Origin: Actinomycetes bacterium
Lineage (GTDB): Bacteria > Actinomycetota > Acidimicrobiia > Acidimicrobiales > JAJZXF01
DNA: 64,000 bases
Assembly (NCBI GenBank): GCA_021802485.1
Contig: JAJZXF010000004.1
Coordinates: 1,162 to 65,161 of the forward strand
Direction: 5' to 3'
A model generated the notes under the pieces. The model had not been told where the DNA came from. It worked only from the letters and a program-made list of their open reading frames with translations, and did not search any database. Numbering within the stretch: position 1 is the stretch's first letter; every line of letters begins with the position of its first letter. The translations under genes and the position numbers were made by a program. This document shows positions 1,510-58,760 of the stretch, piece after piece.

Positions 1510-3576
1510 ATGCGTTCCAGGCGGATGGGAACTATTGGAATTCCTGCAGCGATCGTGACGATCGTCGTCATGATGGTTGTCCCAATGCCCTCCTTCGTGC
1601 TGGACGTCCTCATCACCGCCAATATCACCATGGCGATCATCGTCTTGATCATGAGCATGCACGTTCAACGCCCGCTCGACTTCTCGGTGTTCCCATCGCT
1701 GCTTCTTGTTGCGACGATGTTCCGGCTCGCTTTGAATGTAAGCGCGACGCGCCTTGTGCTTTTGCACGCGTACGCGGGGACTGTGATCCAGTCCTTTGGC
1801 CACTTCGTGGTCGGCCAGTCGATTGTAGTTGGCCTTGTTGTCTTCTTGATCCTTATCATCATCCAGTTCGTCGTCATCACAAACGGTTCCGGCCGGGTCG
1901 CGGAGGTAGCGGCCCGCTTCACCCTGGACGCGATGCCTGGCAAGCAGATGGCGATAGATGCGGACCTCAACTCCGGCTTGATCGACTCTGCAGAGGCGCG
2001 GCGTCGTAGGGCCGAGGTCGGTGACGAAGCGGACTTTTACGGAGCGATGGATGGAGCGTCAAAGTTCGTAAAGGGTGATGCAATGGCGGCGGTGGTGATC
2101 ACCGCAGTCAACCTGATAGGCGGGTTCGTGGTAGGGGTCGTCGAGCACCACATGCCTATTGGCCAGGCAGCGGACACCTATAGCCTGCTGAGCGTAGGTG
2201 ACGGGCTTGTCTCCCAGATACCAGCGTTGCTGCTGTCCATCTCCACGGGCTTGGTGGTGACCCGAGCTGCGAGCGAGAACGACTTTGGCTCCTCGCTCGT
2301 CGCACAGTTCTCTTCGCAGCATCGCGCAGTGCGGATGGCCGGGGCGATCATCGCGATAGTTGGCCTCGTGCCTGGCCTTCCAACGCTGGCTTTTCTCGTC
2401 GTTGGCGGCGGGATCTTCCTTGTGGGTCTGAAAGCGAAGCACGGCCTCGTGGATAAGTTGGAGTTGCAGGCAACCCCGGCAGTGGATGGCGAAGATGGGA
2501 GTGGCACCGATGTCGCGGCTGAGCTAACTCCGCAGTCCCTCGCCCGGGAGATGCGAGCGGAGCCACTCGAGTTGGAGCTGGCATTCGATCTCATAGATCT
2601 TGTGGACAGGTCACGGGGTGGCGATCTCTTGGACCGGGTGCAAGGCCTCAGGCGAAAGGTCGCTTCGGAGCTTGGCTTCGTGTTTCCAGCGGTCAGGACC
2701 AGGGACAACCTATCCCTTGCGGCGTCGAAGTACGTGATCCGGCTTCACGGCGTCGAAGTCGTGCGAGGGGAGGCGCCACCAGGGAAGATACTGGTTATTG
2801 GCAACAAGCTCGACGAACTTCCGGGAGTGGAGACCAACGAGCCTGTGTTCGGCCTTCCAGCTCGCTGGGTTCCGATGGAGATGCGCCACCTTGCTGCATC
2901 AGGTGCAAGGACCGTCGTCGATCGTTCCTCGGTCATCGCTACCCACCTTGGCGAGGTGGTAGCGGCCAACGCGGGCCGATTGCTGTCGCGCCAGCAGGTT
3001 CAGAGCCTGATTGAAGTCGCTCGGGGAACCGATCCGGTGGTTGTGGACGAGATGGCGGGTGTGCCGCTGTCACTGGGTGAGGTCCAAAAGGTGCTCTGCG
3101 GTCTGCTCGACGAAGGGGTGTCTATCAAGAGCCTCGTTCCGATACTCGAGGCGATCACAGAGCGGGCGCGCCAGAACAAGAGCCCAGAGGCACTGATGGA
3201 GGCCGCGCGAAAGGCGATCGGCCCGGCGATCTCAGCGAAGTACCAGACGGATGGTCGGATGCATGTCATCACGCTGGATGGCGTCCTTGAACAGACGCTC
3301 TCCGAGGCTGTCCGGAGCGGTGAAGATGGCTCTGTGCTTGCATGTGATCCTGCGGTTGCCGAGACTGTCGTTACCGAGGTGGCGCGCCTTTCAACCACCG
3401 CGGAGGAAGCTGGGCAGGTCCCGGTGCTCGTGTGCTCGGCAAGGCTCAGACCTGCTCTGTGGCGCTTGCTCAAGCCGCTGCTACCACGTTTGGGCGTGCT
3501 CTCTGTCGAAGAGCTCGGGAACCGGGCGGTGCTCGAAAGGGTTGGGGAGGTGAGCCTTGCCAGAGTTGCGGTTTGA
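1510..3576 (+). CDS. flhA: Flagellar export gate protein FlhA
   Basis: 688 aa. The polytopic N-terminal domain carries ...FVVITNGSGRVAEVAARFTLDAMPGKQMAIDADLNSG...GAMDGASKFVKGDA..., the FHIPEP signature, plus a large cytoplasmic C-domain. GGAGG RBS. Confidence 0.97.
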   Translation: MRSRRMGTIGIPAAIVTIVVMMVVPMPSFVLDVLITANITMAIIVLIMSMHVQRPLDFSVFPSLLLVATMFRLALNVSATRLVLLHAYAGTVIQSFGHFVVGQSIVVGLVVFLILIIIQFVVITNGSGRVAEVAARFTLDAMPGKQMAIDADLNSGLIDSAEARRRRAEVGDEADFYGAMDGASKFVKGDAMAAVVITAVNLIGGFVVGVVEHHMPIGQAADTYSLLSVGDGLVSQIPALLLSISTGLVVTRAASENDFGSSLVAQFSSQHRAVRMAGAIIAIVGLVPGLPTLAFLVVGGGIFLVGLKAKHGLVDKLELQATPAVDGEDGSGTDVAAELTPQSLAREMRAEPLELELAFDLIDLVDRSRGGDLLDRVQGLRRKVASELGFVFPAVRTRDNLSLAASKYVIRLHGVEVVRGEAPPGKILVIGNKLDELPGVETNEPVFGLPARWVPMEMRHLAASGARTVVDRSSVIATHLGEVVAANAGRLLSRQQVQSLIEVARGTDPVVVDEMAGVPLSLGEVQKVLCGLLDEGVSIKSLVPILEAITERARQNKSPEALMEAARKAIGPAISAKYQTDGRMHVITLDGVLEQTLSEAVRSGEDGSVLACDPAVAETVVTEVARLSTTAEEAGQVPVLVCSARLRPALWRLLKPLLPRLGVLSVEELGNRAVLERVGEVSLARVAV

Positions 3577-6375: not shown

Positions 6376-7269
6376 TCATCCGAGGAACTTCAACAACGAT
6401 GGCTGCAGCACCTGCGAGGCTGCCCAGAGAGCCTCCTGGTAGGAGGACTGCATGAGGCTCAGCTTGCTGATCGCCTCAGCGGGGTTGATGTTCTCCAGGG
6501 TTGACATCGTGCTCTGAAGGGTGGATTGGGTGGTCGTGGCGTGATCGCTTGCTGCCTGCATCGCCTGGTAATAGTCACCAATTTGCCCAGCCTGGGTGGC
6601 GACCTGCTTTGTCGCTGCCTCCAGATTGGATAGGTCGGTGCCGAGGACCGCGGGTGTGTTGCCGGCCTGGATATCAGAGGCCATCTTCTTGAGCACGCCA
6701 AAGACCCCAGCTGCGCCGGAACCGAAGACAGCATCGCCGGTCGCAGCGATCGGCATCTGCACTCCGTCCGCGACGGTGCGGGTAGCGACCACGCTGTTTC
6801 CAAGGTAGTTGCCCGCGGCGTTGAATGCCTCGGAACCTGCTGCGGTCCCTGAAAATATCGCTTGCCCGGAGTACGTCGTGTTCGCGAGTGTTAGCAGGCT
6901 CGCTCCAATTGAGCCGACCTGTCCTGCAAGTGCCTGAAGGGACGTCGAGCCACCGATCGAGGCGGTTGAAATCGATAGTGCAAGGTTCTTCGCTTGAGCG
7001 AGCTCGGTCATTGCCTGGTTGAGCGTTGTGTTGGCAACTTGAAGACGCGACAAGCCATCCTTCGCGTTTGCGACGTACTGGTTCGCACGTTCGATTGATG
7101 CCTGGGCGTTCATGATCTGGACAGCGAGTGGGGGGTTGTCCGACGGCACGTTCACTTTCTTGCCAGATGAGATCTGCTGCTGCAGGTTCGAGATCTGAGT
7201 CTGGTCTGCGGTGATGTTGGCGAGGACCTGCTGGCTGGTGGACTCCATGGTCGGGCGCAGGTAAGTCAT
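6376..7269 (-). CDS. flgL: Flagellar hook-associated protein 3 FlgL
   Basis: 297 aa. Flagellin-like N-terminus (QISSGKKVNVPSDNPPLAV...) and C-terminus (...INPAEAISKLSLMQSSYQEALWAASQVLQPSLLKFL). Located directly downstream of flgK. Confidence 0.85.
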   Translation of the reverse strand: MTYLRPTMESTSQQVLANITADQTQISNLQQQISSGKKVNVPSDNPPLAVQIMNAQASIERANQYVANAKDGLSRLQVANTTLNQAMTELAQAKNLALSISTASIGGSTSLQALAGQVGSIGASLLTLANTTYSGQAIFSGTAAGSEAFNAAGNYLGNSVVATRTVADGVQMPIAATGDAVFGSGAAGVFGVLKKMASDIQAGNTPAVLGTDLSNLEAATKQVATQAGQIGDYYQAMQAASDHATTTQSTLQSTMSTLENINPAEAISKLSLMQSSYQEALWAASQVLQPSLLKFLG

Positions 7270-25221: not shown

Positions 25222-26221
25222 TTGCCCTCACAAGGACTATCTCTCCCGCAGCTTCGAGCTCGCGGACTCTCTTCACGAGTTCAGCTTGCGCTGCCTCTAC
25301 GGTCTCTACCCTGGTTGGACCGAGGACGTCCATCTCCTCTTCGAGGTCCGCGGCGGCCCGCTCGGACAGGTTGCGGGTGAACTTCTCTCTCACATCCCCC
25401 GAGGTTCCCTTGAGCGCGATCGCAAGATCCCGTGGTGCAATGTTCCGGAGGACCTTTTGAAGCGAACGATCATCGAGCGCGATTATGTCGTCGAAGACGA
25501 ACAGGAGGTTTCTGACCTCCTCCGCAAGTTCGGGGTCGGTCTGCTCCAGTGTGGTCAGGACCTGCTTTTCCGAGGAGCGGTCAGCGTAGTTCAAGATGTC
25601 GACGAGCGACTTCACGCCGCCGCTCGCGTTATTGCGGTTCTCGAACAGCACTGAAAGCTTCTCAGCGAGTACCTCTGCGGTGTCCCGCAGGACATCCGGC
25701 GAGGTGCGCTTTGTGGTCGCTATCCTGCGGGCTATGTCCGCGCGCAGCTCCTCTGTGATCTGATCGAGCACCGCTGCGCCGTCCCTTGCCGGCAGGTGGG
25801 CAAGGACGGTCGCTACCGTCTGCGGGTGCTCCTCGGCGAGGAAGGTGGCTATCTGCTGTGGATCTATCGAGTCAAGGAAGTTGAACGGTCCCCGTGGGTC
25901 CTGCTTCTCGAGGCTGCGAAGTACCTCGTCCGCACGCTGGGCACCCATGCGAGCCTGGAGGATCTTGCGGGCTGCGTCGAAGCCCCCTTGACCCACCGAG
26001 TGCAGTGCAGCGAGTGTGCGGACGAAGTCGCCGACGAGGTCTGTGACGACGCTATGGTCGAGGGGTGGGAGCTTAGCCAGCGCGGCCATGAGGTCCACCA
26101 CCTCGACATCGCTCATCGATTTCATGATGTTAGCGACCTGATCCTCGTTCATCTGGGCCAGCATCGCGGCCGCCTTCTGGCGTCCGTTCAGGGCGCGGAT
26201 GCTGTTGACTCCCTCGCTCAT
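25202..26221 (-). CDS. fliG: Flagellar motor switch protein FliG
   Basis: 339 aa. ...LNGRQKAAAMLAQMNEDQVANIMKSM..., ...LFVFDDIIALDDRSLQKVLRNI..., ...MDVLGPTRVETVEAAQAELVKRVRELEAAGEI. Confidence 0.95.
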   Translation of the reverse strand: MSEGVNSIRALNGRQKAAAMLAQMNEDQVANIMKSMSDVEVVDLMAALAKLPPLDHSVVTDLVGDFVRTLAALHSVGQGGFDAARKILQARMGAQRADEVLRSLEKQDPRGPFNFLDSIDPQQIATFLAEEHPQTVATVLAHLPARDGAAVLDQITEELRADIARRIATTKRTSPDVLRDTAEVLAEKLSVLFENRNNASGGVKSLVDILNYADRSSEKQVLTTLEQTDPELAEEVRNLLFVFDDIIALDDRSLQKVLRNIAPRDLAIALKGTSGDVREKFTRNLSERAAADLEEEMDVLGPTRVETVEAAQAELVKRVRELEAAGEIVLVRANDELVE

Positions 26222-27819
26222 GCGCCTTCTCCTGTCTCGTGCATCCAGGAGCGCAACAGGCCTGCGACCTCGTCAGGCTGGGAGTCTATGAAGTCCGTCA
26301 AGCTTGCCCCGATACCCCCGGGGCGCTGCGGAAGGAGTGCAAGGTCTTGATTGTCGCCCGCAGTGACCGGAAGCTCGCTCGTCGGGGGGCCCGTGATCGC
26401 CAAGGTGTCCATCCCGTTAAGGGATGCTGGGATCATCGCGAGTCCACGCCGGCGGGCTGACTTACGGCTCGATCTCCAGAGCATTAAAACCACGATCGCG
26501 ATGACAAGCAGTATTGCGAGTGCCTTGATCAGGTTCAGCAGCTGTGCTCTTTGCGCCGCGGCAGCCGCGCTGGCGGCTGCCGCCTGGGCTTGTGCCTGGG
26601 CTTGCGTCGAGAATCGCATTGTCTGCACGCTCAGGACATCGCCCCGTTTTGGCTGCACCCCAGCTGCAGCAGCGATGCTCGTGCGCAACGATGCGAGAGA
26701 GACGCCTCGCGGGAGGGAGTTCACCACGACAGATACACTCATGTGGTTGATCATGCCGGGAGGCTGGCTCACGGTCTGGTCTATCGATCCTGCGGTGTTG
26801 GTAGTCGACGTCTGAGTCTGGGTGTACGTACCGCTTTGTGGAACTGGCATGCCTGGTGCGGTAATCCCACCGAGAGCGCCGCCGGCGGTGGTGCCGGTGC
26901 CAGTGAAGGTCTGATGCGTGGATTGCGAGTTGATCGGGACGGTCACTGGCACCCCAGCAGGAGTTGTCTGGATCCCCTTTGTCGTCGTGGTTGTCGTAGC
27001 GTTATTGAGGCTTACGTTCACCGCGACCGTGGAATTGTTCGTTCCGAGTATGCGCCCGAGCATGCCTTCGATCGAGGCTTTGACCTGATTGTCAACTGCG
27101 AGAGCTGCGTTGCTCGCTGCACCTTGGCCGTTTGCTCCAGGTCCCGCTAGAAGGTTGCCGTTGGAGTCGACGATCGTGACGTTCGATGCGCTCAGGTTCG
27201 CGACGCTTGCTGAGACTAGGTGCACGATCGCTGCGACCTCGCCTGAGCTCAGCACCCCGCCCTGGGCCATGTCCACCAGCACGGAGGCAGACGGGGTCTG
27301 CTGCGGGCCGAGCGCAAAAGCCGATTGGCTCGGCAAGACGAGGCTCACTCGCGCCCCGGTGACGCCGTGGATCGCTTCGATGGTGCGGGTTAGCTCCCCT
27401 TGGAGTGCTTGCTGGTACTCGACTTGTTGGGTGAAGTGTGAAGTCGTGATGCCCTGCTTGTCCAGCAACGACAGCCCGACAGTCCCACCCGAGGGCAGGC
27501 CTTGCTGCGCCATGTCCAAGCGCTGCTGGTAGACCTCGTTCTGGGGCACGAGGATCGTGCTTCCGCCGTTTGCGAGCTGGTAGGGAACCTTGTTAGCGGT
27601 GAGCTTTGCGGTGATGCCTGCTGCGTCAGTCGGCTGAAGGTTGGTGAACAAGGGGCTCCAGGATGGCGTAGATGAGACGTTGACGAAGATGACAGCCGCG
27701 ACTATCACCGCGAGAAGTGCGACGATAGTGACTGCTTTTTGTCCAGTGGTGAATTCGTTCGAGAACCGCCGTACTGCCTGCTTGATCTGCTCGAGGTAGT
27801 CGTTCATTGATGCTGGCAT
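26218..27819 (-). CDS. fliF: Flagellar MS-ring protein FliF
   Basis: 533 aa. N-terminal TM, YscJ/FliF ring-building region (...GITTSHFTQQVEYQQALQGELTRTIEAIHGVTGARVSLVLP...), second TM, and a C-terminal FliG-binding tail. Confidence 0.93.
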   Translation of the reverse strand: MPASMNDYLEQIKQAVRRFSNEFTTGQKAVTIVALLAVIVAAVIFVNVSSTPSWSPLFTNLQPTDAAGITAKLTANKVPYQLANGGSTILVPQNEVYQQRLDMAQQGLPSGGTVGLSLLDKQGITTSHFTQQVEYQQALQGELTRTIEAIHGVTGARVSLVLPSQSAFALGPQQTPSASVLVDMAQGGVLSSGEVAAIVHLVSASVANLSASNVTIVDSNGNLLAGPGANGQGAASNAALAVDNQVKASIEGMLGRILGTNNSTVAVNVSLNNATTTTTTKGIQTTPAGVPVTVPINSQSTHQTFTGTGTTAGGALGGITAPGMPVPQSGTYTQTQTSTTNTAGSIDQTVSQPPGMINHMSVSVVVNSLPRGVSLASLRTSIAAAAGVQPKRGDVLSVQTMRFSTQAQAQAQAAAASAAAAAQRAQLLNLIKALAILLVIAIVVLMLWRSSRKSARRRGLAMIPASLNGMDTLAITGPPTSELPVTAGDNQDLALLPQRPGGIGASLTDFIDSQPDEVAGLLRSWMHETGEGA

Positions 27820-27832
27820 GCTGTCGTACCCC

Positions 27833-28141
27833 TCAGATCTGCATGTTCATTACGGCGTTGAAGGCACTTACAGCCTTGTTCGCTACGGTCATGGTCAACT
27901 GGGTGGAAAGAGATGCCTTCTCTGCCGCGATCATCATGTTTGGCAGGCTTCCCTGCCCTGATGCTGCGGAGAGCTCCTGAGCGTTGGCGGCATTCTGAGT
28001 GTTTTGCAGCCCGTCGAGCGCTTTTGCAAGCGATGCCATGAAGCCACTGGAGTTGCTCGCCGCGGCGGGTGACTTTTGGACAGCGGATGCGCCGGTTGGG
28101 GCCGGGATCGCAGGCAGCGACGGGATCGGCAGTACCCCCAC
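27833..28141 (-). CDS. fliE: Flagellar hook-basal body complex protein FliE
   Basis: 102 aa. C-terminus ...MMIAAEKASLSTQLTMTVANKAVSAFNAVMNMQI matches FliE. Located between flgC and fliF. Confidence 0.85.
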   Translation of the reverse strand: MGVLPIPSLPAIPAPTGASAVQKSPAAASNSSGFMASLAKALDGLQNTQNAANAQELSAASGQGSLPNMMIAAEKASLSTQLTMTVANKAVSAFNAVMNMQI

Positions 28142-28147
28142 TATTGA

Positions 28148-28558
28148 TCAGCTCCCGAGAGTCAGTGCGGACTGGTAGGCGCTGATCGCGTGTGTTGCGA
28201 CGGCGACGTTCGACTGGTAGCTGTCTTGAGCGATGACAAGGTTCACGAGCTGAGTGCCCATGCTGACCGATGGGTACTGCACGTAACCTTGGGCATTCGC
28301 ATACGGGCTCGCCGGATCGTACGCAAGCTTGCCTTTGGGGCCGAGCGCCACTCCTGCCATCGTCACTCCCGCAGCGACCCCGCCCGGCGGGTTGCCTGTT
28401 TGAGCCGGTACAGCGATTGGGGATTCAGAGCGATATCCTGGCTGGCCGACTGGGGAGATGTCGTTCGCGTTCGCTATGTTGCCGGCGATCATGTCCAGCC
28501 AGGTGTGGGCCATGTCCATTCCGGATGCGGCTATCGGCAGTGATTGGAACATGCTCAC
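28148..28558 (-). CDS. flgC: Flagellar proximal rod protein FlgC
   Basis: 136 aa. MSMFQSLPIAASGMDMAHTWLDMIAGNIANAND... and ...MGTQLVNLVIAQDSYQSNVAVATHAISAYQSAL. Confidence 0.93.
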   Translation of the reverse strand: MSMFQSLPIAASGMDMAHTWLDMIAGNIANANDISPVGQPGYRSESPIAVPAQTGNPPGGVAAGVTMAGVALGPKGKLAYDPASPYANAQGYVQYPSVSMGTQLVNLVIAQDSYQSNVAVATHAISAYQSALTLGS

Positions 28559-28905
28559 GTGAAGCTGCCTCCGAGCGAACCGCGCACCAGGCGGATCTGC
28601 GCGTTGAGCGCATTGACCATGGTCTGGTACTGGAGGGTGACTTTTTCCGCTGCAATGAGCTCCGCTGAGAGGTTGACGTTGTTCCCGTCGCTCGCAGGAG
28701 GGGCATTGGATGCCATCTCGGTTGCCGTTGCGGTTGCAGTCGATCCGGGCGAGGAAAGCGCCTGTGTGAGAGACCGCTCGAAGCTCACCCCAGTTGCCGT
28801 GTACCCCGGCGTCGCGTAGTTCGCGATGTTGTTTGCAATTGCCTGTTGCCTGAGCGACAAGCTGTCGATAGAGAACTGGAGCACGTTAACGACCGAGCTC
28901 TGCAT
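28555..28905 (-). CDS. flgB: Flagellar proximal rod protein FlgB
   Basis: The ATG at 28905, 9 nt after AGGAG, gives MQSSVVNVLQFSIDSLSLRQQAIANNIANYATPGY... The C-terminus is NNVNLSAELIAAEKVTLQYQTMVNAL. The track TTG start (28914) is less likely. Confidence 0.9.
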   Translation of the reverse strand: MQSSVVNVLQFSIDSLSLRQQAIANNIANYATPGYTATGVSFERSLTQALSSPGSTATATATEMASNAPPASDGNNVNLSAELIAAEKVTLQYQTMVNALNAQIRLVRGSLGGSFT

Positions 28906-29013
28906 TCTGCACAACTCCTAAGGCTTTTCAAGGGCACGACAAAAATCGCCGTACCGGCTTCGCAGCCATCGTGGCCCTCCGTTGTGAGCAGTCCGTGCTT
29001 CCTTACGAAGTAT

Positions 29014-45762: not shown

Positions 45763-47160
45763 TCACGCTAGCCCCGTAGAGGGTTCCGCTGCCGAAGAGA
45801 TGTGTGCGCTGCCTATCCCTCCTGCCCGAGCTGCTGTTGCGGCTACGAAGTGTTCTGCAGCGCTGGGGTCCGCTCCGAGGTGAAGGTGGACATAGGACGC
45901 GATGAGCGATCGCGACGTGTAGCCAGCTTGGCGGGCTACCGTACGGGTACCCGAGCCGGGCGAGCGCTGGACCATGAGCCCATCTCCGCAAGGTTCCAGC
46001 GTCGAGTAGTGGAACTCATGTCCTCGAAGCTGCGCTCCTACCCGCGCGATTGGCGATGGCCCGAGGGTCGAGACGGTCCGGTACCCGAGAGTCAGGGTGC
46101 TGGTCATTCGAGCATCTGCAGGAACCGCCGAGCACATCCGACGGCCATTCAAGGTTCTTGCCAGCCAGAGCATTCCGCCGCATTCAGCCCAGGTCACCAT
46201 ACCCATCGCTATCCGAGTGCGGACATCGTCGCACAGAGCGCGGTTCTCCGCTAGCGCCTCTGCGAACACCTCTGGGAACCCTCCCGCCACGTACAGACCA
46301 GTCGCCTGCTCCGGAAGCCGTTTCTCGGTCAAGGGGTCGAAGGGAGCCAGCTCAGCCCCCGCTTCTTCTAGGCGCTCCAAGTTTTCCGGGTAGATGAAGG
46401 CGAAAGCCGCCCCAGCTGCTACGGCAACCGTGGCTCTTGCGACCCTCCTCGTCTCGGGCAGGCTGCCCGGGGGCATCAGGGTTGCAGATCGGGCAAGCAG
46501 CTCGATCTGCTCCAGGTCGCAAGATCGCTCGACTGCGTCCGCCAAGAGCCTGACCGACTTCGCGACGTCCTGGCGTTGCTCTACGACCGGGATGAGGCCG
46601 AGGTGGCGATCCCGCCAGGTCAGCGAAGGGTCACGTGCGATAGCGCCGAGCACCGGGATCCCCAGCGGGCTAAGCGCGGCACGCAGAGCGTCTTCGTGCG
46701 TAGGGCTTCCCACGCGGTTCAAGATCACTCCCGAAAGGCTTACTTCGCTTGAGAAGGTGTGGTAGCCGTGAACGATTGCGGCGACAGACGTTGACATCGA
46801 TGATCCGTCAACGACGAGGACTACCGGCGCTGCGATGATGCGGGCTACTTCAGCTGTGCTGCTTGGCCCGTCGAAGAGCCCCATGACGCCCTCGACGACA
46901 AGGATGTCTGCACCCGCTGCGGCGTTAGATGCCAGGGCGGGCACCGCCTCTGCTCCGGAGATCCATGAGTCGAGGTTCCTGCCCGGCCTCCCGGTCGCGA
47001 CTTCATGGTACCCAGGGTCGATGAAGTCAGGACCGACTTTGGCCGAAGCCACCTTGTGGCCACGTTTTGACAGCGCTGCCATGAGACCGGTCGCGATGGT
47101 GGTCTTACCTACTCCCGAATGAGTTCCCGCGATGACGATGCGAGCTATGGTGGCTCCCAC
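45763..47160 (-). CDS. cbiA: Cobyrinate a,c-diamide synthase
   Basis: 465 aa. IVIAGTHSGVGKTTIATGLMAAL...KVGPDFIDPGYH..., plus a C-terminal glutamine amidotransferase domain (...TWAECGGMLWL...RGHEFHYS). Confidence 0.93.
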   Translation of the reverse strand: MGATIARIVIAGTHSGVGKTTIATGLMAALSKRGHKVASAKVGPDFIDPGYHEVATGRPGRNLDSWISGAEAVPALASNAAAGADILVVEGVMGLFDGPSSTAEVARIIAAPVVLVVDGSSMSTSVAAIVHGYHTFSSEVSLSGVILNRVGSPTHEDALRAALSPLGIPVLGAIARDPSLTWRDRHLGLIPVVEQRQDVAKSVRLLADAVERSCDLEQIELLARSATLMPPGSLPETRRVARATVAVAAGAAFAFIYPENLERLEEAGAELAPFDPLTEKRLPEQATGLYVAGGFPEVFAEALAENRALCDDVRTRIAMGMVTWAECGGMLWLARTLNGRRMCSAVPADARMTSTLTLGYRTVSTLGPSPIARVGAQLRGHEFHYSTLEPCGDGLMVQRSPGSGTRTVARQAGYTSRSLIASYVHLHLGADPSAAEHFVAATAARAGGIGSAHISSAAEPSTGLA

Positions 47161-47162
47161 GC

Positions 47163-47765
47163 TCAGTACTCGATGCCCTTTTTCGCCCCGATCCCAGCGT
47201 CAAAGGCGTGCTTCACCTTGCGCATCTCGGTGACCGTGTCGGCAATATCGATCAGCTCGCTAGGAGCGTCGCGGCCTGTTATGACCACGTTCGTCTTTGG
47301 TGCGCGTTGGATGATCCCAGTGACGACCTCGCTTACCGGCACCCAGCCGTAGTTGACCGCGTAGGTCAACTCGTCGAGGATGACGAGGTCGTAGGCACCC
47401 GATGAAAGGGCCTTGCGCGCGACTTCCCATGCGTTGCGTCCCTTTGCTGCGGTCTCGTCGGTGTCGGATGATTCCCAGGTGAAGCCATCTCCCAGGGTCT
47501 GAAATTCGATGGACAGGTGCTCGGCAAGCTTGCGCTCGCCAACCTTCCATTTGCCTCCCTTTACGAACTGGATCACGATGACTTTCCAGCCCCTGGCCCA
47601 TGCTCGCCCCATGACCCCAAATGCTGCAGAGGATTTTCCCTTGCCGTGGCCCGTATTGATCAGCACCAGCGACGGCGCTCTGTGTAGGTCCGTGAACCTC
47701 CCCGCCTTGGCGGACGGGGATTGTGCCCCTGCCGTCTGGCTTGGTTTGCCTGGCATCGCGCACAT
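47163..47765 (-). CDS. cobO: Cob(I)yrinic acid a,c-diamide adenosyltransferase
   Basis: ...LVLINTGHGKGKSSAAFGVMGRAWARGWKVIVIQFVKGG...DLVILDELTYAVNYGW...VVITGRDAP.... The ATG at 47765-47763 shares its A with the tnpB TGA (TGATG). ATG 47756 is an alternative start. Confidence 0.9.
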   Translation of the reverse strand: MCAMPGKPSQTAGAQSPSAKAGRFTDLHRAPSLVLINTGHGKGKSSAAFGVMGRAWARGWKVIVIQFVKGGKWKVGERKLAEHLSIEFQTLGDGFTWESSDTDETAAKGRNAWEVARKALSSGAYDLVILDELTYAVNYGWVPVSEVVTGIIQRAPKTNVVITGRDAPSELIDIADTVTEMRKVKHAFDAGIGAKKGIEY

Positions 47766-49189
47766 CACGCCACCGCGACCAACGGAACTCGCTCCGAGGA
47801 GCTGGTGGATGAGATTGCTAGCTTCGGCTTGCACGACGTTTCCGCCGGGGCCTGGTTCTTGGCACTACTTGGGGTTATGGCCTTTCGGCACTGCACCTTG
47901 CGGTATGTGGTGCGCTGATCAGGTGACCAGCGTTTCTCGTCCCGGAGATACGTGACTCGGATCTCTACATCCGCTCCTATAGGGACGTAGTCCCCATGTA
48001 TTGCCTCCTGTAGGATGTTGATCGCTCCAACAGCGTCTCGGTGACAGGTGAAGTTGCACACCTTGCACCGGTAGTCCCGCCCCGAGGGGCAGTTGCGTGC
48101 TCCACACACAGGACATGTCTTCGTGGACCCGGACTCGTTGATGTGCTCGATGTCGAGTCCGGTCTTCTCTGCGAGGTAGCGCTCCTCGGTTCCTCTCGAG
48201 AACTGCGAGAGCTGTTGGCGAGATGAGCGACCCATACGACGCTTCTGCTTGGTCTTGTGCTCGATACCACGCGCATCTCCTATGACGAGCCGTCCGATGG
48301 AGTGCGCTATGACGTGATTCGCTGCTCTCCTTGCAACCTGGTGGTCAAAGTCTCTGAGTTGCAAGCGGGCCTTGCCCTTTGTGCGTTTCTTTGCTGCAAC
48401 GAGTCTACGGTGCTTACGAGAGCCGTTCTTGGTCTTGGAAAGCTTCCTCTGGAGCGCACCCGTAGCCTTGTTCCGCTGTCTCTTGATAGCACGCGCCTCG
48501 CGGCCGTTGACGATGGTGACGTTGATGGTCTGCTCATCTAGCCAAGTCGCAAGTGCCATTGGATTGATGATGCCTTCGTCTATAGCTGTGACCGCTTTGC
48601 CAGCTGAGAACATACGACGCGACATGTAGGGAATATGCAGTGAGAACTGCCGGTTGTCCTGGTCCCAGCAGAGCTGGATCTCGCCCCAGAGTTCAGGGGA
48701 AACCAGCCTGCCGGTTACAGGGTCCTCCACGTTTGGCAATGCCAACACGATGCCAGGCCTTCCCCGTCCGAGAGACAGGTTGAGCTTGTGGTCACAGCGC
48801 ACCCTCCAGCCGTAGCTCTTGGAGAAGCTCAGCGGTCTGTAGTTCTTCTTCCGCCAGGGAGAACGCACTCTCATCCCATTCATGCGGTTGGTGCGAGAGG
48901 TCTTGATCGCTTCGTAGAGGTCGTATCCAATCGCCTCGGTCGTGTGAGCATGAAGCGGGCGCTGCTCTCGTGGGATCGAGGTGAGGAACGCTCGGATGTC
49001 GTACTTGCTTGGGTTGTGTTTCGCTTTCCACTCCGCATGTACCCAGTTCAGCGCCTCACCCCAGAGGCCAGCTGCAATGTGGTGAGCATCGTGGGCTTGC
49101 CGGTAATTGGCACCCGATAACGTGACGGGGACAATGGCTGTGCGTATGACCTCACGGCTTGTTGGCGGACTACTCGGTATTGCGACCAT
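47765..49189 (-). CDS. tnpB: TnpB-type RNA-guided endonuclease candidate (IS200/IS605-family accessory protein), no tnpA
   Basis: 474 aa. RuvC-I is KAVTAIDEGIINP. At the usual RuvC-II glutamate position the protein reads RLVIGDARGI, while a Glu sits in EHINESGSTKTC. The zinc ribbon is CPVCG...CKVCNFTCHRD, and RuvC-III is HRDAVGAINI. There are about 75 residues of C-terminal tail. Confidence 0.9.
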   Translation of the reverse strand: MVAIPSSPPTSREVIRTAIVPVTLSGANYRQAHDAHHIAAGLWGEALNWVHAEWKAKHNPSKYDIRAFLTSIPREQRPLHAHTTEAIGYDLYEAIKTSRTNRMNGMRVRSPWRKKNYRPLSFSKSYGWRVRCDHKLNLSLGRGRPGIVLALPNVEDPVTGRLVSPELWGEIQLCWDQDNRQFSLHIPYMSRRMFSAGKAVTAIDEGIINPMALATWLDEQTINVTIVNGREARAIKRQRNKATGALQRKLSKTKNGSRKHRRLVAAKKRTKGKARLQLRDFDHQVARRAANHVIAHSIGRLVIGDARGIEHKTKQKRRMGRSSRQQLSQFSRGTEERYLAEKTGLDIEHINESGSTKTCPVCGARNCPSGRDYRCKVCNFTCHRDAVGAINILQEAIHGDYVPIGADVEIRVTYLRDEKRWSPDQRTTYRKVQCRKAITPSSAKNQAPAETSCKPKLAISSTSSSERVPLVAVA

Positions 49190-49320
49190 ATGTTTGATAC
49201 TACTCCAGGGGTGTAACAGTTCCTCGGATGGGTGCGTACTTGTCTTATCAGCGGCCTTGACCCCTCCCTTGCGGAAGGGGGTTGCGGGTGGATGTGGTTC
49301 ATACAGAGAAACGGTAGTGT
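47765..49320 (-). mobile_element. Probable non-autonomous IS200/IS605-type (tnpB-only) element; ends not determined
   Basis: A lone tnpB with an imperfect hairpin carrying a GCAA loop upstream (49260-49282; minus strand reads ACCCCCTTCCGCAAGGGAGGGGT). Two GAAA-loop hairpins lie in the 3' coding tail (47834-47847 and 47880-47889), as expected for an LE hairpin and an omega-RNA scaffold. The boundaries are guesses. Confidence 0.45.
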
Positions 49321-49435
49321 TGTTCGATGGAGAACAGGGAACCCGCCGTTCGCCAGCGGTTGTCCTGCGACTGTAACCGAGGAGGCGTGTGGACTCGAGA
49401 GCAGCTAAGCCGACAGCTTCAGCCGGACCGGTGAG
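49315..49435 (+). promoter_or_regulatory. Candidate cobalamin riboswitch in the cobU leader
   Basis: CAGGGAA (49335-49341) followed by a 33-nt stretch ending GTCCTGCGACTGTAACCGAGGAG, compared with the remembered consensus ..CCCGCCACUGU.ACCG.GGAG. A B12-box-like AGCCGGACCGGTG (49421-49433) includes the GTG start of cobU. The GGUG.GAAUCC element is not evident. Confidence 0.35.
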
Positions 49436-49952
49436 GACGCTCGTTCTCGGGGGCGCGCGCTCTGGGAAGTCCGAAATAGCAGAGAATATTGTAGCTCGCC
49501 ACGGGGCGGAGGTGACCTACGTTGCTACCTGCATTGGCGCTGGCGAGGGTGAGAAGGGCTGGCGTGCTCGTATCGAAGCACATCGAAGGCGCCGCCCAGC
49601 GGCCTGGAGGACGGTAGAGGTGCCGGCGGGTGGTGACCTTTCAGCGCTGCTCGTTTCGCTGGACGGCCCGCTGATAATCGACTCCCTCGGCACATGGCTT
49701 GCGGGACTCGATGGCTTCCGAGCAGATGTGGACCGGCTCTGTGCCGCGTTGACGGAACGGGATTCGCCTGCCGTCATCGTCAGCGACGAGGTAGGGCTTG
49801 GGGTTCATCCAGCAAGCTCCGCGGGTATGGAGTTTCGGGATGCGCTGGGAGAGCTGAACCGTCGTGTGGGTATGGTCTGCGACGAGGTGATCCTCGTGGT
49901 CGCGGGCAGGGCGATGTCGTTGCCTGCGTCGCGGCCGGGAGAGGCGTTGTGA
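49431..49952 (+). CDS. cobU: Adenosylcobinamide kinase / adenosylcobinamide-phosphate guanylyltransferase
   Basis: The GTG at 49431 gives (M)RTLVLGGARSGKSEIAE... (P-loop at the extreme N-terminus, as is usual), then ...IDSLGTWL...VIVSDEVGLGVHP...FRDALGELN. The track start at 49389 adds 14 non-conserved codons. Confidence 0.9.
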   Translation: MRTLVLGGARSGKSEIAENIVARHGAEVTYVATCIGAGEGEKGWRARIEAHRRRRPAAWRTVEVPAGGDLSALLVSLDGPLIIDSLGTWLAGLDGFRADVDRLCAALTERDSPAVIVSDEVGLGVHPASSAGMEFRDALGELNRRVGMVCDEVILVVAGRAMSLPASRPGEAL

Positions 49953-50776
49953 ACACATCTCGCGAAGGGGCCAAAGAGCCAGTGATGGTCGCGTTTTACC
50001 GTGTGGTGAGCGGATGGTTCGAGGATGCACGGGTTGCCTTCGGGTTCCTCACGGTCGCGGGCTCCCCACTCGTACCGTCTCCAAGCTCGCTTGCGTGGTT
50101 CCCGATGGTAGGAATTGTGCTGGGAGGTGTGCTGGGCTGCGTATGGTGGCTCTCAGCGAAGATCTTGCCGTTTGGTATGGCCGCTGCAGTGGTCGTCGTT
50201 CTAGACCTTGGTCTCACGGGGATGCTCCACTTTGACGGCCTGTGCGACTCGGCCGATGGTTTGTTGGGCCACCTCTCACCCGAGAGGCGCCTCGAGGTCA
50301 TGAGGGAGCCAGGAGTTGGTGCATGGGGAGTTGGCGCCGGAGCTTCAACTCTCGGGCTGCGCTGGCTGGCTCTGTCCCTGTTACAACCAGCTCCGCTGTT
50401 ACTGGCGGGGTTGTGGTGTCTCTCCAGGAGTGCGATGGCCTTGGCCTCGCTTTCGTTGCCCTACGCGCGGACCGAAGGTGGCTTGTTGAGCGCGTTCAGA
50501 GCTGGCGGTGAAGGCGATCATGCGAGTGGGACCGCTGCGAAGAGCCTGCGCTCAGCTTGCGGTGCCGCAGCAGCCCTGGGCTTGCTCGCAGCTGTAGCGG
50601 TTCTGGAACAGTGGCGACTCGTTCACGGCGCAGAGGTCCTCGCAGCTGGAGCGCTGGCTGGAGCTGCAGTGATCTTGCGCGCAAGGCGCACGATTGGGGG
50701 AGTGACAGGTGATGTGCTCGGAGCGATGGGCGTCGTCTTGGAGACGGTCGGCCTGGTTGCTGCGACGCTCAAGTAA
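49949..50776 (+). CDS. cobS: Adenosylcobinamide-GDP ribazoletransferase (cobalamin synthase)
   Basis: Polytopic membrane protein ...AFGFLTVAGSP...WFPMVGIVLGGV...LGLTGMLHFDGLCDSADGL.... The GTG at 49949 overlaps the cobU stop (GTGA). ATG 49985 is an alternative start. The track ORF start (49694) lies inside cobU. Confidence 0.88.
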   Translation: MNTSREGAKEPVMVAFYRVVSGWFEDARVAFGFLTVAGSPLVPSPSSLAWFPMVGIVLGGVLGCVWWLSAKILPFGMAAAVVVVLDLGLTGMLHFDGLCDSADGLLGHLSPERRLEVMREPGVGAWGVGAGASTLGLRWLALSLLQPAPLLLAGLWCLSRSAMALASLSLPYARTEGGLLSAFRAGGEGDHASGTAAKSLRSACGAAAALGLLAAVAVLEQWRLVHGAEVLAAGALAGAAVILRARRTIGGVTGDVLGAMGVVLETVGLVAATLK

Positions 50777-55694: not shown

Positions 55695-58600
55695 TCACGC
55701 CCAGGTTCTCCACGCATGGCGAATGTTCTGACGAACGGCCGCGACATGGTCTCGCTTGGTGACCAAGACGGTGGCGAGGCCGATGAGGAGCAACCCTAGG
55801 GTGGCCAGGAAGGTGAACAGAGGGAGACCTCGCGCTGCGTCGCCGAGAGCCCAAAGTCCGCCAGCGGCAATTGCAGCGGCCCCGCCGATGACCGGCACTC
55901 GCCGCCGTAGTGCGATCCCTGCGAAGAGTGATACGACGCCTTCAGCGACGAGAAGCGGAACGGTCACCGTTGGCGGCGGAGCGTAAACACCCAAACGGTG
56001 CACTGCAACCATCTGCACTGCGGTTGTGCCTGCGAGAAGGGCAAGGCCGGCGGCAGCGAGTGTCCTGGCTGCCTGAATGCTTCCTGGAGCGCGTTCAATA
56101 GCCGGCATGACGATTCCAACGAGAATCAGGCAAAGGCCAGGCCCGAGAACGTACCATTGTGGATCTGTTGCCCCTGCGATGCGGGCCAGCGGAAGGCTGA
56201 TCAGAGACGCGATTACGGGTGACGCCCACGCTAGCCACCATGGTCCGCGCAATCGTCTCTCGAGTGCGAGGTCAAGAGCGAGCACAGCGAGAATGCCGGC
56301 CGTGATAGGCAACAGGGCGTCGTTGCGGTGGATCCAGGTGTGGGAGTCTACGAGCATCACAGCCGCGAGGATCGACATTCCAATGATTGCTCCGCTCCTG
56401 TGGGCAGCGCCGTGATCCAGCAGACTCCCGGTTCTTTCTTCCATCCCGATCTCGCGGGTAGCTCTCGGCGTCCCCTGCGACAAGGTCGTTGGTGCTCGCG
56501 GGTGACCCTCTGGGGGGAGTGCGGATCCTCCCGAGTCCGCAAGTGGGCTGTAGCGAGGCGAAGCGCCCGCGCGAGGAAACAGCGTGCCTATAACGACGCC
56601 AGAGAGGTAGCCTATGGTGCAGACTGCAGCAAGTGCGAGCGGGTAGGTTCGTCCAGTGGCGCCTTCTCCCGCTAGGACAGAGACTGTCGCAGCTGCTAGG
56701 AGTGCTATGGCCATGGCGCCTACCTGCGGGACCCTCTCGAGGCTCGCTATTAGTTCAACCGCTACTGCACAAGCGAGGAGAAGCCCCCCGGCAAGGACGT
56801 CCCGGTGGGTCGCGAGTGCGAGGAACACGACGGTAAACCCGACCAACCCGGCAAATGTGTAGGCGGGAGCCGCCCATTCCCGCCCTGAGCGAAGGGAAAT
56901 GATCAGAGCTGCACCAGCGAGGATGAACCCAAGCGGCAGGTACGCGCTCGCTACCGGGCCGGGGGCTAGGCCTGAGAGATGACCGGAGCGCGTTTGAAGG
57001 TGGAGTCCGAGGTGTAGCCCGAGGCTTTGAGCACCCAGAGCGAGGAAGAGCCAAGCCGTCGAGAGGATGGCTCCGGTTCCGAATAGTAGGTTTGGCCTCC
57101 TGTTCCTAACTGCAATGAAGGTTGGTGACGCTGCTGCGACCAGAAGCACGCTGGCCTCAAGCCACCACGGATGGGCGACAATTAGGAACAGCGTTGCGAG
57201 TGCTTGAATCACGGACGCGACGCGCAGGAACTCGAGGAAGCTTTCAACTCCAGACCCAGGTGGTGCCTGCGGGGGTGGCTGTGGAGACCACGGAAACTGG
57301 GGTGGCTGTTGGGGGGCCTGAGACCTTGTCGGCCATGGCAGCCTCTCGAGAACCGGTTGCAGTGAGGTTGAGGACGCTGCCCAAGCGAACAATACCGAGA
57401 GAAATGCAAGCTCACCGCCTGAGGCAACCCGACCCCCATTGAATGCGAGGCCAATTGCCAACACGCTCAGGCTTGTGCCTGCGGCAACCAGCCAGACAAG
57501 GTTGCTCCGTCGGTAGTACCAGCAGGCTAGGGCGAGTTCAAGTGTCACGACGACGAGGGTGCAGGCACGGGGTGTTGCGTAAGGGGCTGACCATGCGACA
57601 GCGATCGTGGCACCCGAGAACGCAAGCGGCTCAGCCAGTTGCCGTGGCATCCTGAGGCGTCTAGTGGAAGGGGTCCCTTCCCCAGTGCTCCGGTGCCCCA
57701 GAGCGCCGTAGACAATAGCTATTGGCGCAAAGCCAGCGCCGTCCCATATCCCTGCATGTGCAGCGACGAGCGCGCTGGACCAGCTGATCGCAAGCGCGAC
57801 GGCCGCTAGGGCGCCGTAAGCAAGGGAACCCGTGGAGAACGCAAGCGCGCCATAGAGCATCATGCAGACGAAGGCACCCGCGAATAGCGCAGTAGCTGGG
57901 CTGATCCCCGTAGTGCCAACGTGTAGGGCGAACCCCTCTGCGACTAGCACCAACGGGAATAGAAGGGACGCGACGCCGAGGTAGACGGTTCCGACCATTG
58001 CGAGGCGCTCGTAGCGACGGCATATTGCGGCACCGATCGCGAACATAGCGTCAAGCGCTGCAAGCGCGAGCAATCTTAGAACCTGCTGGCCGGGTGGCGC
58101 ACCGTATGCTTCGAAGAGGACCGTTGCGATCATGAGCAGGAACGCGCCGGTATAGGCGAGGAGCTGTACCCCGAGATCTGAGGTGAAGCCCCCGGGAGGT
58201 TTGCCGGATTCCCCCGGGTGCACATCGCTGTTTACGGGGCGTTGTGAGCTGGGGGAAGGGCCGGGGAAGGAATGCGGAGGTGTCGGATGCCCGGCATAGG
58301 CCTGGAGCGGAACAGACCCAGGGAACGGCACACGAGATTGAGGAGAATGTGCCCAGGCGCCCGGGGGTGGTCGGGCGGCCGCGCTGGCAAGGAAGGTGTC
58401 TGCGGTCGCGATACGCATTTCGAGCACGTGACGAAGGTGTGCGATTCCATCAGATGTGAGCGCTCCACCTGGAGAAACCCCGTTGATCTCTTCCAGTGAG
58501 GTCGCAGAGCGGTTGCGTTGGATGTATACCGTTCGCAGGTACCGTTCTGGCGGGACTCCCGCGGCGATGAGGGCCATTGCGGCTGCAACCTCAGTGGTCG

Positions 58601-58760
58601 AGCCCCGCTGCAATGAGTTGATTGCAGCTTCAGCTGCTGCGCGAGATGCTGCTTCATCTACGGAGAGGTTGGTCCTTGCCCACCGTTCCCACTGGGAAAC
58701 TGCCGCAGCCCGCGCGTCCTCGGCGCCACGGCTTGCCGACCAATCCCCTTCATCCACCAC
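55695..58760 (-). CDS. Large polytopic membrane protein of unknown function (about 200-aa soluble N-domain, Pro-rich linker, more than 20 predicted TM helices)
   Basis: 1021-aa ORF that is hydrophobic throughout after residue ~200. Internal hydrophilic Pro-rich loops (e.g. SQAPQQPPQFPWSPQPPPQAPPGS). No catalytic motif recognised. Confidence 0.7.
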   Translation of the reverse strand: MVDEGDWSASRGAEDARAAAVSQWERWARTNLSVDEAASRAAAEAAINSLQRGSTTEVAAAMALIAAGVPPERYLRTVYIQRNRSATSLEEINGVSPGGALTSDGIAHLRHVLEMRIATADTFLASAAARPPPGAWAHSPQSRVPFPGSVPLQAYAGHPTPPHSFPGPSPSSQRPVNSDVHPGESGKPPGGFTSDLGVQLLAYTGAFLLMIATVLFEAYGAPPGQQVLRLLALAALDAMFAIGAAICRRYERLAMVGTVYLGVASLLFPLVLVAEGFALHVGTTGISPATALFAGAFVCMMLYGALAFSTGSLAYGALAAVALAISWSSALVAAHAGIWDGAGFAPIAIVYGALGHRSTGEGTPSTRRLRMPRQLAEPLAFSGATIAVAWSAPYATPRACTLVVVTLELALACWYYRRSNLVWLVAAGTSLSVLAIGLAFNGGRVASGGELAFLSVLFAWAASSTSLQPVLERLPWPTRSQAPQQPPQFPWSPQPPPQAPPGSGVESFLEFLRVASVIQALATLFLIVAHPWWLEASVLLVAAASPTFIAVRNRRPNLLFGTGAILSTAWLFLALGAQSLGLHLGLHLQTRSGHLSGLAPGPVASAYLPLGFILAGAALIISLRSGREWAAPAYTFAGLVGFTVVFLALATHRDVLAGGLLLACAVAVELIASLERVPQVGAMAIALLAAATVSVLAGEGATGRTYPLALAAVCTIGYLSGVVIGTLFPRAGASPRYSPLADSGGSALPPEGHPRAPTTLSQGTPRATREIGMEERTGSLLDHGAAHRSGAIIGMSILAAVMLVDSHTWIHRNDALLPITAGILAVLALDLALERRLRGPWWLAWASPVIASLISLPLARIAGATDPQWYVLGPGLCLILVGIVMPAIERAPGSIQAARTLAAAGLALLAGTTAVQMVAVHRLGVYAPPPTVTVPLLVAEGVVSLFAGIALRRRVPVIGGAAAIAAGGLWALGDAARGLPLFTFLATLGLLLIGLATVLVTKRDHVAAVRQNIRHAWRTWA

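Follow-up and report, generated by a model that had tools for sequence, protein, structure and literature searches.

An insertion sequence carrying only tnpB within codon 2 of cobO in an Acidimicrobiales cobalamin operon, and a right end that may supply the start of a chimeric CobO

The region considered here, referred to as the window, is a stretch of 64,000 nucleotides (nt) of contig JAJZXF010000004.1 (assembly GCA_021802485.1), from an Acidimicrobiales bacterium, and all the coordinates given without a locus name refer to it. It harbors cobalamin biosynthetic genes interrupted by a tnpB gene, which is read on the minus strand together with cobO. The downstream genes cbiA/cobB, cbiL, cbiF, cbiD, cbiET, and cbiGH are all intact, and cobU and cobS lie upstream in the divergent orientation. 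The tnpB product is recognized by the Pfam models OrfB_IS605 (33.5 bits) and Cas12f1-like_TNB (51.9 bits), in both cases over the cut-offs. A previous inspection of the sequence (the original prediction) had described a lone, intact tnpB co-oriented with cobO, and this was confirmed by the 474-aa open reading frame (ORF) and by the absence of tnpA from the window; no second tnpB, no further left end (LE) or right end (RE) of the element, and no tRNA were found within the 64 kb either. The reported TGATG overlap is also present at 47767-47763, the tnpB TGA (47767-47765) having its A in common with an ATG (47765-47763). The explanation of the whole locus that we regard as probable is that a selfish insertion sequence (IS) sits inside codon 2 of cobO and that its RE supplies the start codon from which a chimeric CobO is made.

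The extent of the element was defined by comparison with its relatives. Protein homologues 72–85% identical to the TnpB of the window are encoded in related metagenome-assembled genomes (MAGs) at loci other than cob, and the boundaries were placed where DNA homology starts and stops with respect to the copies L002, L003, L089, L004, L090, and L093-L095. In related copies at unrelated loci (74–88% identical), the homology extends 75 nt past the tnpB stop codon, along a block reading TGATGTGCGCGATGCCAGGCAAACC...GGCGGGGAGGTTCAC, and then breaks; the element terminus is ...GGAGGTTCAC and its final base in the window is 47692. The element does not, therefore, stop at the tnpB stop codon, as had been proposed. 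Copies ending well beyond the ATG had been regarded as possible evidence for another cobO start; such copies do exist, as related and non-identical ones, but they reveal no alternative native start downstream. The GC content of the element is 57–58%, compared to 62–65% in the flanks. Subterminal imperfect hairpins are present at both ends, with no terminal inverted repeats, and the two hairpins resemble each other and covary between elements, as in IS200/IS605 ends; the hairpin with a GCAA loop had correctly been recognized as a left-end structure, since it is conserved among the copies.

According to the LE and RE hairpins, the covariation of the 3' RNA described below, and the Y1 TnpA of a relative, the element can be classified as a non-autonomous, tnpB-only IS of the IS200/IS605 family. 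It shares with the IS1341-type elements and with their parents ISDra2 and IS608 the lone tnpB, the subterminal hairpins without inverted repeats, the insertion 3' of a short motif (NTGAR in this case) with no target duplication, and an omega-RNA extending over the tnpB 3' end and the RE. The target motif of ISDra2 is TTGAT. The present element differs from them in the rearranged RuvC-II site, in the RE start codons reading outward in frame into the host gene, and in the clustering of the sampled sites on host start codons and on NTGA stop-start overlaps. The relative in question, L094, harbors at 2007-2453 a gene for a 148-aa Y1 (HUH) TnpA (PF01797, Y1_Tnp) between the LE and a divergent tnpB, the latter 73% identical to that of the window, with the same layout of the LE and of the transposon-associated motif (TAM), AAAGTTGAA/CAAACCGCGGCCGCAATCC (here and below a slash marks the junction between flank and element or between the two joined flanks). 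L094 represents an autonomous member of the family and a candidate source of transposase in trans.

The CobO proteins of 80 Acidimicrobiales relatives start with M[AT]RAxS[LI]VL[VL]NTGHGKGKS, about 10 residues ahead of the P-loop, and most database homologues are 174–177 residues long. The window reads ...GRFT/DLHRAPSLVLINTGHGKGKS at the junction between the element and cobO, the transposon-encoded leader of the annotated CobO being MCAMPGKPSQTAGAQSPSAKAGRFT; in the 200-aa ORF, which also matches NCBIfam cobA (202 bits), the Pfam domain CobA_CobO_BtuR starts at residue 33, and the NCBI annotation pipeline PGAP places the start of a 197-aa CobO (P0121) at the second ATG of the RE. Since the homology continues through them at unrelated loci, the supposed cobO ATG and the first 25 codons are transposon (omega-RNA scaffold) sequence. 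Joining the two flanks, ...GTATGAA/GGACCTACAC, yields ATG AAG GAC CTA CAC AGA GCG, that is MKDLHRAPSLVLINTGHGKGKS (MKDLHRAPS...), and a CobO of 177 aa; the predicted uninterrupted cobU-cobO sequence is ...GTATGAA/GGACCTAC.... The joined sequence places the insertion 3' of TGAA, within codon 2 of the native cobO (ATG AA/G), with the element co-oriented with cobO. Moreover, the divergent cobU and cobO-cbiA order is found in many Acidimicrobiales relatives, and this ancestral arrangement implies a simple insertion. The features are collected in Table 1.

Table 1. Features of the element and of the cobO region in the window, and genes adjoining related copies.
Feature	Position	Strand	Remarks
tnpB-only insertion sequence, IS200/IS605 family	49297-47692	minus	about 1606 bp; left boundary uncertain by at most 4 nt
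LE	49297-49190	minus	kept in other copies; 8-bp hairpin inside
LE hairpin CCCCUUCC-GCAA-GGGAGGGG	49280-49261	minus	conserved among copies
tnpB CDS	49189-47765	minus	474 aa, RuvC-II-rearranged type
Predicted omega-RNA scaffold	47933-47692	minus	covers the final ~56 tnpB codons as well as the 75-nt RE
RE subterminal hairpin CCCCGUCCG-CCAA-GGCGGGG	47719-47700, within 47719-47692	minus	kept in all copies
GGAGG, then terminal TTCAC	47701-47697, 47696-47692	minus	part of RE
Two RE ATGs	47765-47763 and 47756-47754	minus	both in frame with the cobO body; the first overlaps the tnpB TGA
Putative guide template GGACCTACACAGAGCGCCGT	47691-47672	minus	first 20 nt of the right flank, native cobO codons 2-8
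TAM-like TGAA	49301-49298	minus	directly 5' of the element, overlaps the native cobO ATG
Native cobO ATG, orphaned	49302-49300	minus	left of the element
Chimeric cobO ORF	47765-47163	minus	200 aa: 25 transposon-encoded codons and native body 47691-47163
cobU, ancestral neighbor of cobO	49389-49952	plus	divergent
Copy L002			flanked by atpF and by the b-delta ATP-synthase gene
Copy L003			before a PAS-GGDEF-EAL gene
Copies L004/L005			before a RodZ_C gene
Copy L089			before a chlorite-dismutase-family gene
Copy L093			before a GH5 cellulase gene
Copies L095/L096			between coxL-like and coxS-like genes
Copy L094			adjoins Y1 TnpA

These data contradict the view that the ATG at 47765 is the start codon of cobO itself, as it sits in the conserved RE while the native one has been left on the other side of the LE; they agree with the view that cobO no longer has a private start and promoter and that the operon is read through or from the element. 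In the reading previously proposed, tnpB would be a separate first cistron before an intact cobO, would take its guide from codons 1–7 of that gene, and would persist on account of the operon's dependence on it, under B12-responsive control. The TGATG overlap on which it was built is real and is used by gene callers, cobO has no other upstream start or promoter, and the insertion is stable in seven contigs; we nevertheless judge this reading very unlikely, given that, at unrelated loci, conservation as transposon sequence takes in the ATG and the 74 nt beyond it, that native CobO homologues lack the 25-aa leader, and that no riboswitch was found. Nor would the operon depend irreversibly on the element, since the native start would be restored on its excision. 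An 84-codon ORF (49302-49048, minus strand) opens at the orphan native ATG, runs through the LE, and overlaps the start of tnpB in a different frame; as its equivalents vary in length (19 codons in L095), it probably has no function.

An NTGAR motif is found directly before the LE in eight of nine copies: the five-base sequences are ATGAA in the window and in L095, TTGAG in L002 and L003, TTGAA in L090, L093, and L094, and GTGAG in L086, the exception being L004 (GCGAG). Flank joining in L086, L095, and L002 reveals no target duplication, the insertion lying 3' of the short motif. The copy L086 is inserted inside a repeat-protein gene, where GCG TCT GTG AG joined to A TGG GAA GTG GCG AAA AAC CCT gives back a repeat unit, DASVRWEVAKNP; this restoration implies that TGAG belongs to the flank and that ...TTCAC are the last bases of the element. 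Other placements of the boundary were considered and rejected. A boundary at AT/G, splitting the start codon, and one with TGAAC as flank are disfavored by the L086 repeat and by the reading frames of the window and of L002, which point to TGAA/C; with a 5-nt TAM and an RE ending in ...CAC, every host gene would fall out of frame. The left boundary is inferred, with an uncertainty of at most 4 nt, because no close-relative empty site was found. The host repeat gene of L086 seems to be frameshifted soon after the junction (2969-3100, ...WEVAKNPTYT followed by PYDTLSILAGDD in another frame), which a sequencing error or the decay of the interrupted gene could explain.

As for the nuclease, the motifs AIDEGI, LVIGDARG, INESGSTKTC, CPVC...CKVC, and HRDAVGAINI listed in the original prediction were all found. 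An alignment of 34 homologues (45–98% identity) revealed that D204 (AIDEGI), G304-D305 (LVIGDARG), E352 (INE), the CxxC pairs of the zinc ribbon (C359/C362/C375/C378), and D385 (HRDAVGA) are invariant or nearly so; G304 occupies the canonical Glu position of RuvC-II and E352 represents the alternative Glu, 48 residues later. The relocation of the glutamate is thus confirmed as such, but it is a feature of the clade and not a peculiarity of this copy. According to Jiang, Saito et al., the RuvC-II Glu is replaced by Gly or Pro in all Fanzors and in a subset of TnpBs, and an alternative Glu is found about 45 residues away; neither the D324A nor the E467A mutant of ApmFNuc is active, and for the rearranged TvTnpB activity was found with the TAM NTGAC (PMC10530073). 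According to Altae-Tran et al., the same rearrangement defines large TnpB clades, the largest of which, RIIr-5, has Gly at that position, and their mobility is like that of the others (PMC10691335). On the basis of these residues, the TnpB of the window is assigned to this published RuvC-II-rearranged clade. TvTnpB of Thermoplasma volcanium ('TnpB2', RIIr; PMC10530073, PMC10691335) likewise has Gly at RuvC-II, the alternative Glu about 45–48 residues on, before the zinc ribbon, and a TAM resembling the TAM-like TGAR found here, where the host is instead a bacterium of the Acidimicrobiales.

The best match among solved structures is the Fanzor2 of Acanthamoeba polyphaga mimivirus (L79; PDB 9b0l; E-value 2.8e-8), in which D324 and E467 correspond to D204 and E352. 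The AlphaFold model (predicted local distance difference test 79, predicted template modeling score 0.64) has a TnpB/Cas12f/Fanzor2 fold, with a Foldseek E-value of 1.2e-13 to Fanzor2; the two proteins share the fold and these residues, although Fanzor2 is a protein of a eukaryotic virus, the identity in the structural alignment is about 14%, and there are differences in the N-terminal half and in the RNA. The invariance of D204, E352, D385, and the CxxC pairs, the Fanzor2 alignment, and the fold suggest that the nuclease is probably active. TnpB residues 435–474 are predicted to be disordered, and such a tail would fit with a conservation imposed by the overlapping RNA.

The integrity of the catalytic site also bears on the possibility that this is a domesticated, immobilized TldR-like TnpB regulating the cob operon by means of its guide. 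As in TldR systems, a TnpB homologue stands beside a host operon with a guide that would match cobO, and it is present as a single copy in the window and in the same place in seven contigs. TldRs, however, have lost RuvC catalytic residues, and here the D/E/D triad and the zinc ribbon are intact; the seven contigs belong to one species (99.5%), the family is mobile, with homologues 74–88% identical at unrelated loci, one of them with a TnpA, and hairpins are retained at both LE and RE. The element is not a member of that group, and a regulatory role of this kind is highly improbable.

The presence of an omega-RNA-like structure overlapping the end of the ORF, as originally suggested, is borne out by the covarying fold of 12 copies. 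The consensus fold of their last ~270 nt has 56 pairs, with 94.9% of the cells paired and 12 pairs showing compensatory changes; all 500 shuffles stayed below the value observed, and the result for slid controls was 0–7. The tnpB stop codon and the first ATG fall in a predicted loop and the second ATG in a stem. Two hairpins with GAAA loops had been singled out. The one at 47846-47835 is the strongest covarying helix, conserved with compensatory changes, its length varying while GNRA-type loops are kept; the GCC-GAAA-GGC hairpin at 47890-47881, in contrast, drops out of the 12-sequence consensus fold, its GNRA loop and stem being kept, with an extension by insertion in L093. A second strongly covarying helix is found at 47802-47791. 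No Rfam family matched the window at the gathering score, or positions 47000-50000 at E ≤ 10, and thus neither an omega-RNA family nor a group I intron was recognized there. In IS200/IS605 TnpB elements, the guide is templated immediately 3' of the RE. The guide of the present element would therefore be templated by position 47691 onward and not, as previously stated, by cobO from 47765 onward, since the RE continues to 47692.

The same insertion is shared by several contigs. An identical protein is encoded on six of them, all in the cob context, and L092 (99.5% nt identity) carries the same insertion with both junctions; the seven contigs represent one species. A comparison of the window with L092 over 6.8 kb brought out 35 differences, 22 of which are inside the element (1.4% vs ~0.25% in the flanks); those in the element span 48929-47700, and 12 are clustered in 48115-47991. 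At several of the differing residues, the near-identical variant P0001 moves toward the family consensus. This pattern is compatible with gene conversion from other copies, or with relaxed constraint or decay. The concordance of the seven contigs also bears on a possible artefact of metagenome assembly across a repeated element, for which L003 and L089 offer a precedent, being family contigs with one common and one differing flank. For the locus of the window, this possibility is close to negligible, as cobU and cobO are both ancestral neighbors, the junctions are the same in seven independently assembled contigs, and the flanks join into a sensible cobO. L003 (3588-5905) and L089 (1-2314) have the left flank and the element in common (95% identity), with different right flanks (the GGDEF gene vs the chlorite-dismutase-family gene), which points to recombination between element copies or to chimeric assembly at the repeat.

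Concerning the family as a whole, 10 distinct right-flank contexts were found across related MAGs, which indicates that it is mobile; no other copy was seen in the genome of the window itself, and a metagenome scan with TnpB retrieved three loci only. All 10 independent junctions are co-oriented with the downstream gene, and four to five of them lie on, or no more than three codons from, the host start (e.g., atpH, coxS, and the GH5 lipoprotein gene); in these start-placed copies, the RE ATG runs in frame into the host gene. The same RE ATGs are found in the copies at the atpH, coxS, GH5, and chlorite-dismutase-like loci, where gene callers start the host genes at them. Eight copies, all the fused ones included, have 65 nt between the conserved second ATG and the end of the element, in frame with the host AR/N codon, and three unfused copies have 66 nt.

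In L095, the left flank GGGGGAAGGG-ATGAA and the right flank AGTATCCGTCCAGGTGAACGGG... together read ATG AAA GTA... and give MKVSVQVNGERREGDVEPRTLLVHWLRD; the TGA within ATGAA is the stop codon of coxL, and the Fer2 domain starts at residue 29 of the chimera. The insertion in L002 (TTGAG/GGAGCTG) falls on a TTGA in which the atpF stop codon, the TGA of the TAM, overlaps the start of the gene that follows. The start assignment rests on this overlap and not on an N-terminal helix; a delta-subunit helix at the N-terminus was considered and discarded, as Pfam OSCP starts only at residue 168, the protein being a b-delta fusion. In L093, (ATG CAG) TTGAA/A CTA CGC... leads into a lipoprotein signal peptide, (MQ)LKLRLATLSLLVSIIVVATSC. 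The host ORF of L089 is in frame with the RE, the left flank of this copy being the one shared with L003. In L091/L087, L004, and L094, the RE ends 1–21 nt upstream of a co-oriented start codon, and in L003, 93 nt upstream.

The elements of L091 (4884-5353) and L087 (1099 onward) are diverged, and each is followed after 1–2 nt by the ATG of a small gene, the two genes being orthologous (M.MREDC..FQS.TY..GEVA.FC...); their TnpBs are 64–79% identical to that of the window and their RE termini differ (GGTTCAC vs AATAAAAC), which could be an old shared insertion or the repeated use of one site. The L091 copy has no recognizable LE, and gene calling gives its tnpB a long N-terminal extension (602 aa); a second TnpB-like gene (6376-7193, minus strand) and an ISL3 transposase fragment (1284-1595) lie near it.

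The background frequency of the motif in the window amounts to 867 TGAR sites on both strands, 449 of them antisense in genes and 111 (13%) intergenic; with 59 crude genes, only about a dozen, or about 1–2%, can overlap a start. Three exact start-codon placements out of 10 are thus far above the uniform expectation and, to a lesser degree, exceed the level that survivorship at intergenic sites would produce; with n = 10, this is suggestive and falls short of proof. Searches for further fusions were made with the RE peptide. A 50-aa concatenated query retrieved no candidates, a result that is uninformative given the presence of the peptide in P0121. With a 30-aa query, phmmer retrieved from 1.84 billion cluster representatives only a 58-aa RE ORF and a spurious repeat protein; this search had no power, since a chimera falls into the cluster of its host family. 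In a scan of viral contigs with the RE pattern, all eight matches were spurious.

It may also be argued that cobO is simply inactivated, as a 5'-truncated pseudogene or a gene with a weak start at GTG-47666, that the in-frame ATG is a coincidence used by gene callers, and that the recurrent in-frame cases derive from GC-rich open frames and from the dominant codon phase of TGAR. Indeed, the three RE frames are all open, the sample consists of 10 junctions, and sense TGAR sites are mostly in the phase xTG-ARx (158 out of 307 sense sites), which fixes the frame; L092, moreover, is called from the GTG. We consider inactivation unlikely, because the same layout is found at atpH in the ATP-synthase operon and at coxS in coxLSM, where gene loss should be costly, and because the cobO body and the nine downstream cob genes are intact. 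The two leader/junction substitutions between the window and L092, at 47700 and 47691 (G in the window, A in L092), are both synonymous in the fused frame; furthermore, the 65-nt in-frame RE is present in four out of four frame-independent start placements, and three of the six others have 66 nt.

Several observations nonetheless weigh against an active element that supplies the start of a chimeric CobO. The element diverges about five times faster than the flanking cob genes, and P0001 has Arg at the first Cys of the zinc ribbon (C359R). The NCBIfam model NF040570 (guided_TnpB) matches the protein over its full length (E-value 8e-27) with 94.5 bits, below the cut-off of 100. One gene caller starts the L092 CobO from GTG 47666 (167 aa). 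All the loci derive from metagenome assemblies and, as the case of L003 and L089 suggests, some junctions may be chimeric. Lastly, a scan of genome contigs with the CobO core gave 80 Acidimicrobiales loci and no empty site, the best being 81% identical, and a protein search retrieved P0121, with the same insertion, the next CobO without insertion being 83% identical.

Sequence signals for the transcription of the operon were examined as well. The original prediction had placed a candidate riboswitch at 49315-49435; no match to the cobalamin riboswitch RF00174 was retrieved at the gathering score from the whole window, nor at E ≤ 10 from 47000-50000, and the proposal is not supported. In many Acidimicrobiales relatives, a cobalamin riboswitch (81–92 bits) immediately precedes cobO, yet it is read from the opposite strand (5820-5985 in L016 and 5724-5847 in L019, with the loci oriented so that cobO is on the plus strand; L006, L021, L024, L042, and others), and hence serves the cobU unit, which is divergent. 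The distance from the riboswitch 5' end to the cobO start can be less than 20 nt. In L007, L081, and L085, cobU starts 10–45 nt from the cobO match, leaving no room for a riboswitch, and L007 gave no Rfam match. No terminator-like site was found in 47500-49500, and a sigma-70 promoter scan gave nothing on the minus strand. A TAGTAT 7 nt before the tnpB ATG, kept in several copies, may be a -10 box, a suggestion derived from the sequence alone.

On the whole, the working of the locus can be depicted as follows. Transcription of cobO and of the operon behind it would begin either upstream, reading through the element, or at a promoter in the LE. CobO would be made as a chimera with 22–25 transposon-encoded N-terminal residues, its translation being re-initiated at TGATG or begun at the second ATG. 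The omega-RNA would be formed by folding of the 3' portion of the tnpB transcript, with the first ~16–20 nt of the native cobO as guide; TnpB would then cut the vacated cobO site, TGAA followed by GGACCTACACAGAGCGCC, and the element would be restored (selfish homing).

More tentatively, insertion at the translation start of genes may be an adaptation of this lineage, given that the NTGAR TAM matches both starts and stop-start overlaps, a possibility that we advance with considerable doubt. The RE would act as a replacement initiation site, by virtue of the TGATG, the second ATG, the GGAGG 5 nt from the end, and the frame-keeping 65 nt. This, in turn, would imply that expression is maintained even for essential genes (atpH, coxS, cobO), in the form of chimeras with an extended N-terminus, and that their translation is coupled to, and possibly throttled by, the translation of tnpB and the binding of TnpB to the start-bearing scaffold.

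The element is in itself ordinary, being a lone TnpB IS of a published catalytic variant; a recurrent placement at start codons with an in-frame RE was not found described in the literature searched. The closest parallel is with IStrons (IS607/IS605 with a group I intron; 10.1101/2023.11.20.567912), in which the RNA of the element likewise limits the damage to the host gene and conflicts with omega-RNA formation; here there is no intron, according to the Rfam search, and the proposed mitigation is translational, via the RE start codon. If the in-frame read-out of the RE were functional, it would represent a translation-level counterpart of IStron splicing, and a selfish RNA-guided transposon would spare the gene it enters while tying the expression of that gene to its own. 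As regards annotation, the 'cobO start' and 22–25 residues of the deposited CobO are transposon-encoded, and the same applies to other host proteins beside family members.

Two further features of the window lie outside the cobalamin genes. A 1021-aa ORF (55695-58760, minus strand) is located beside kdpFABC and has no Pfam match on record (L001 gene table). At 26218-28914 (minus strand), the translations have, by eye, the look of a flagellar cluster, with a FliF-like protein of 533 aa followed by small FliE-, FlgC-, and FlgB-like proteins.

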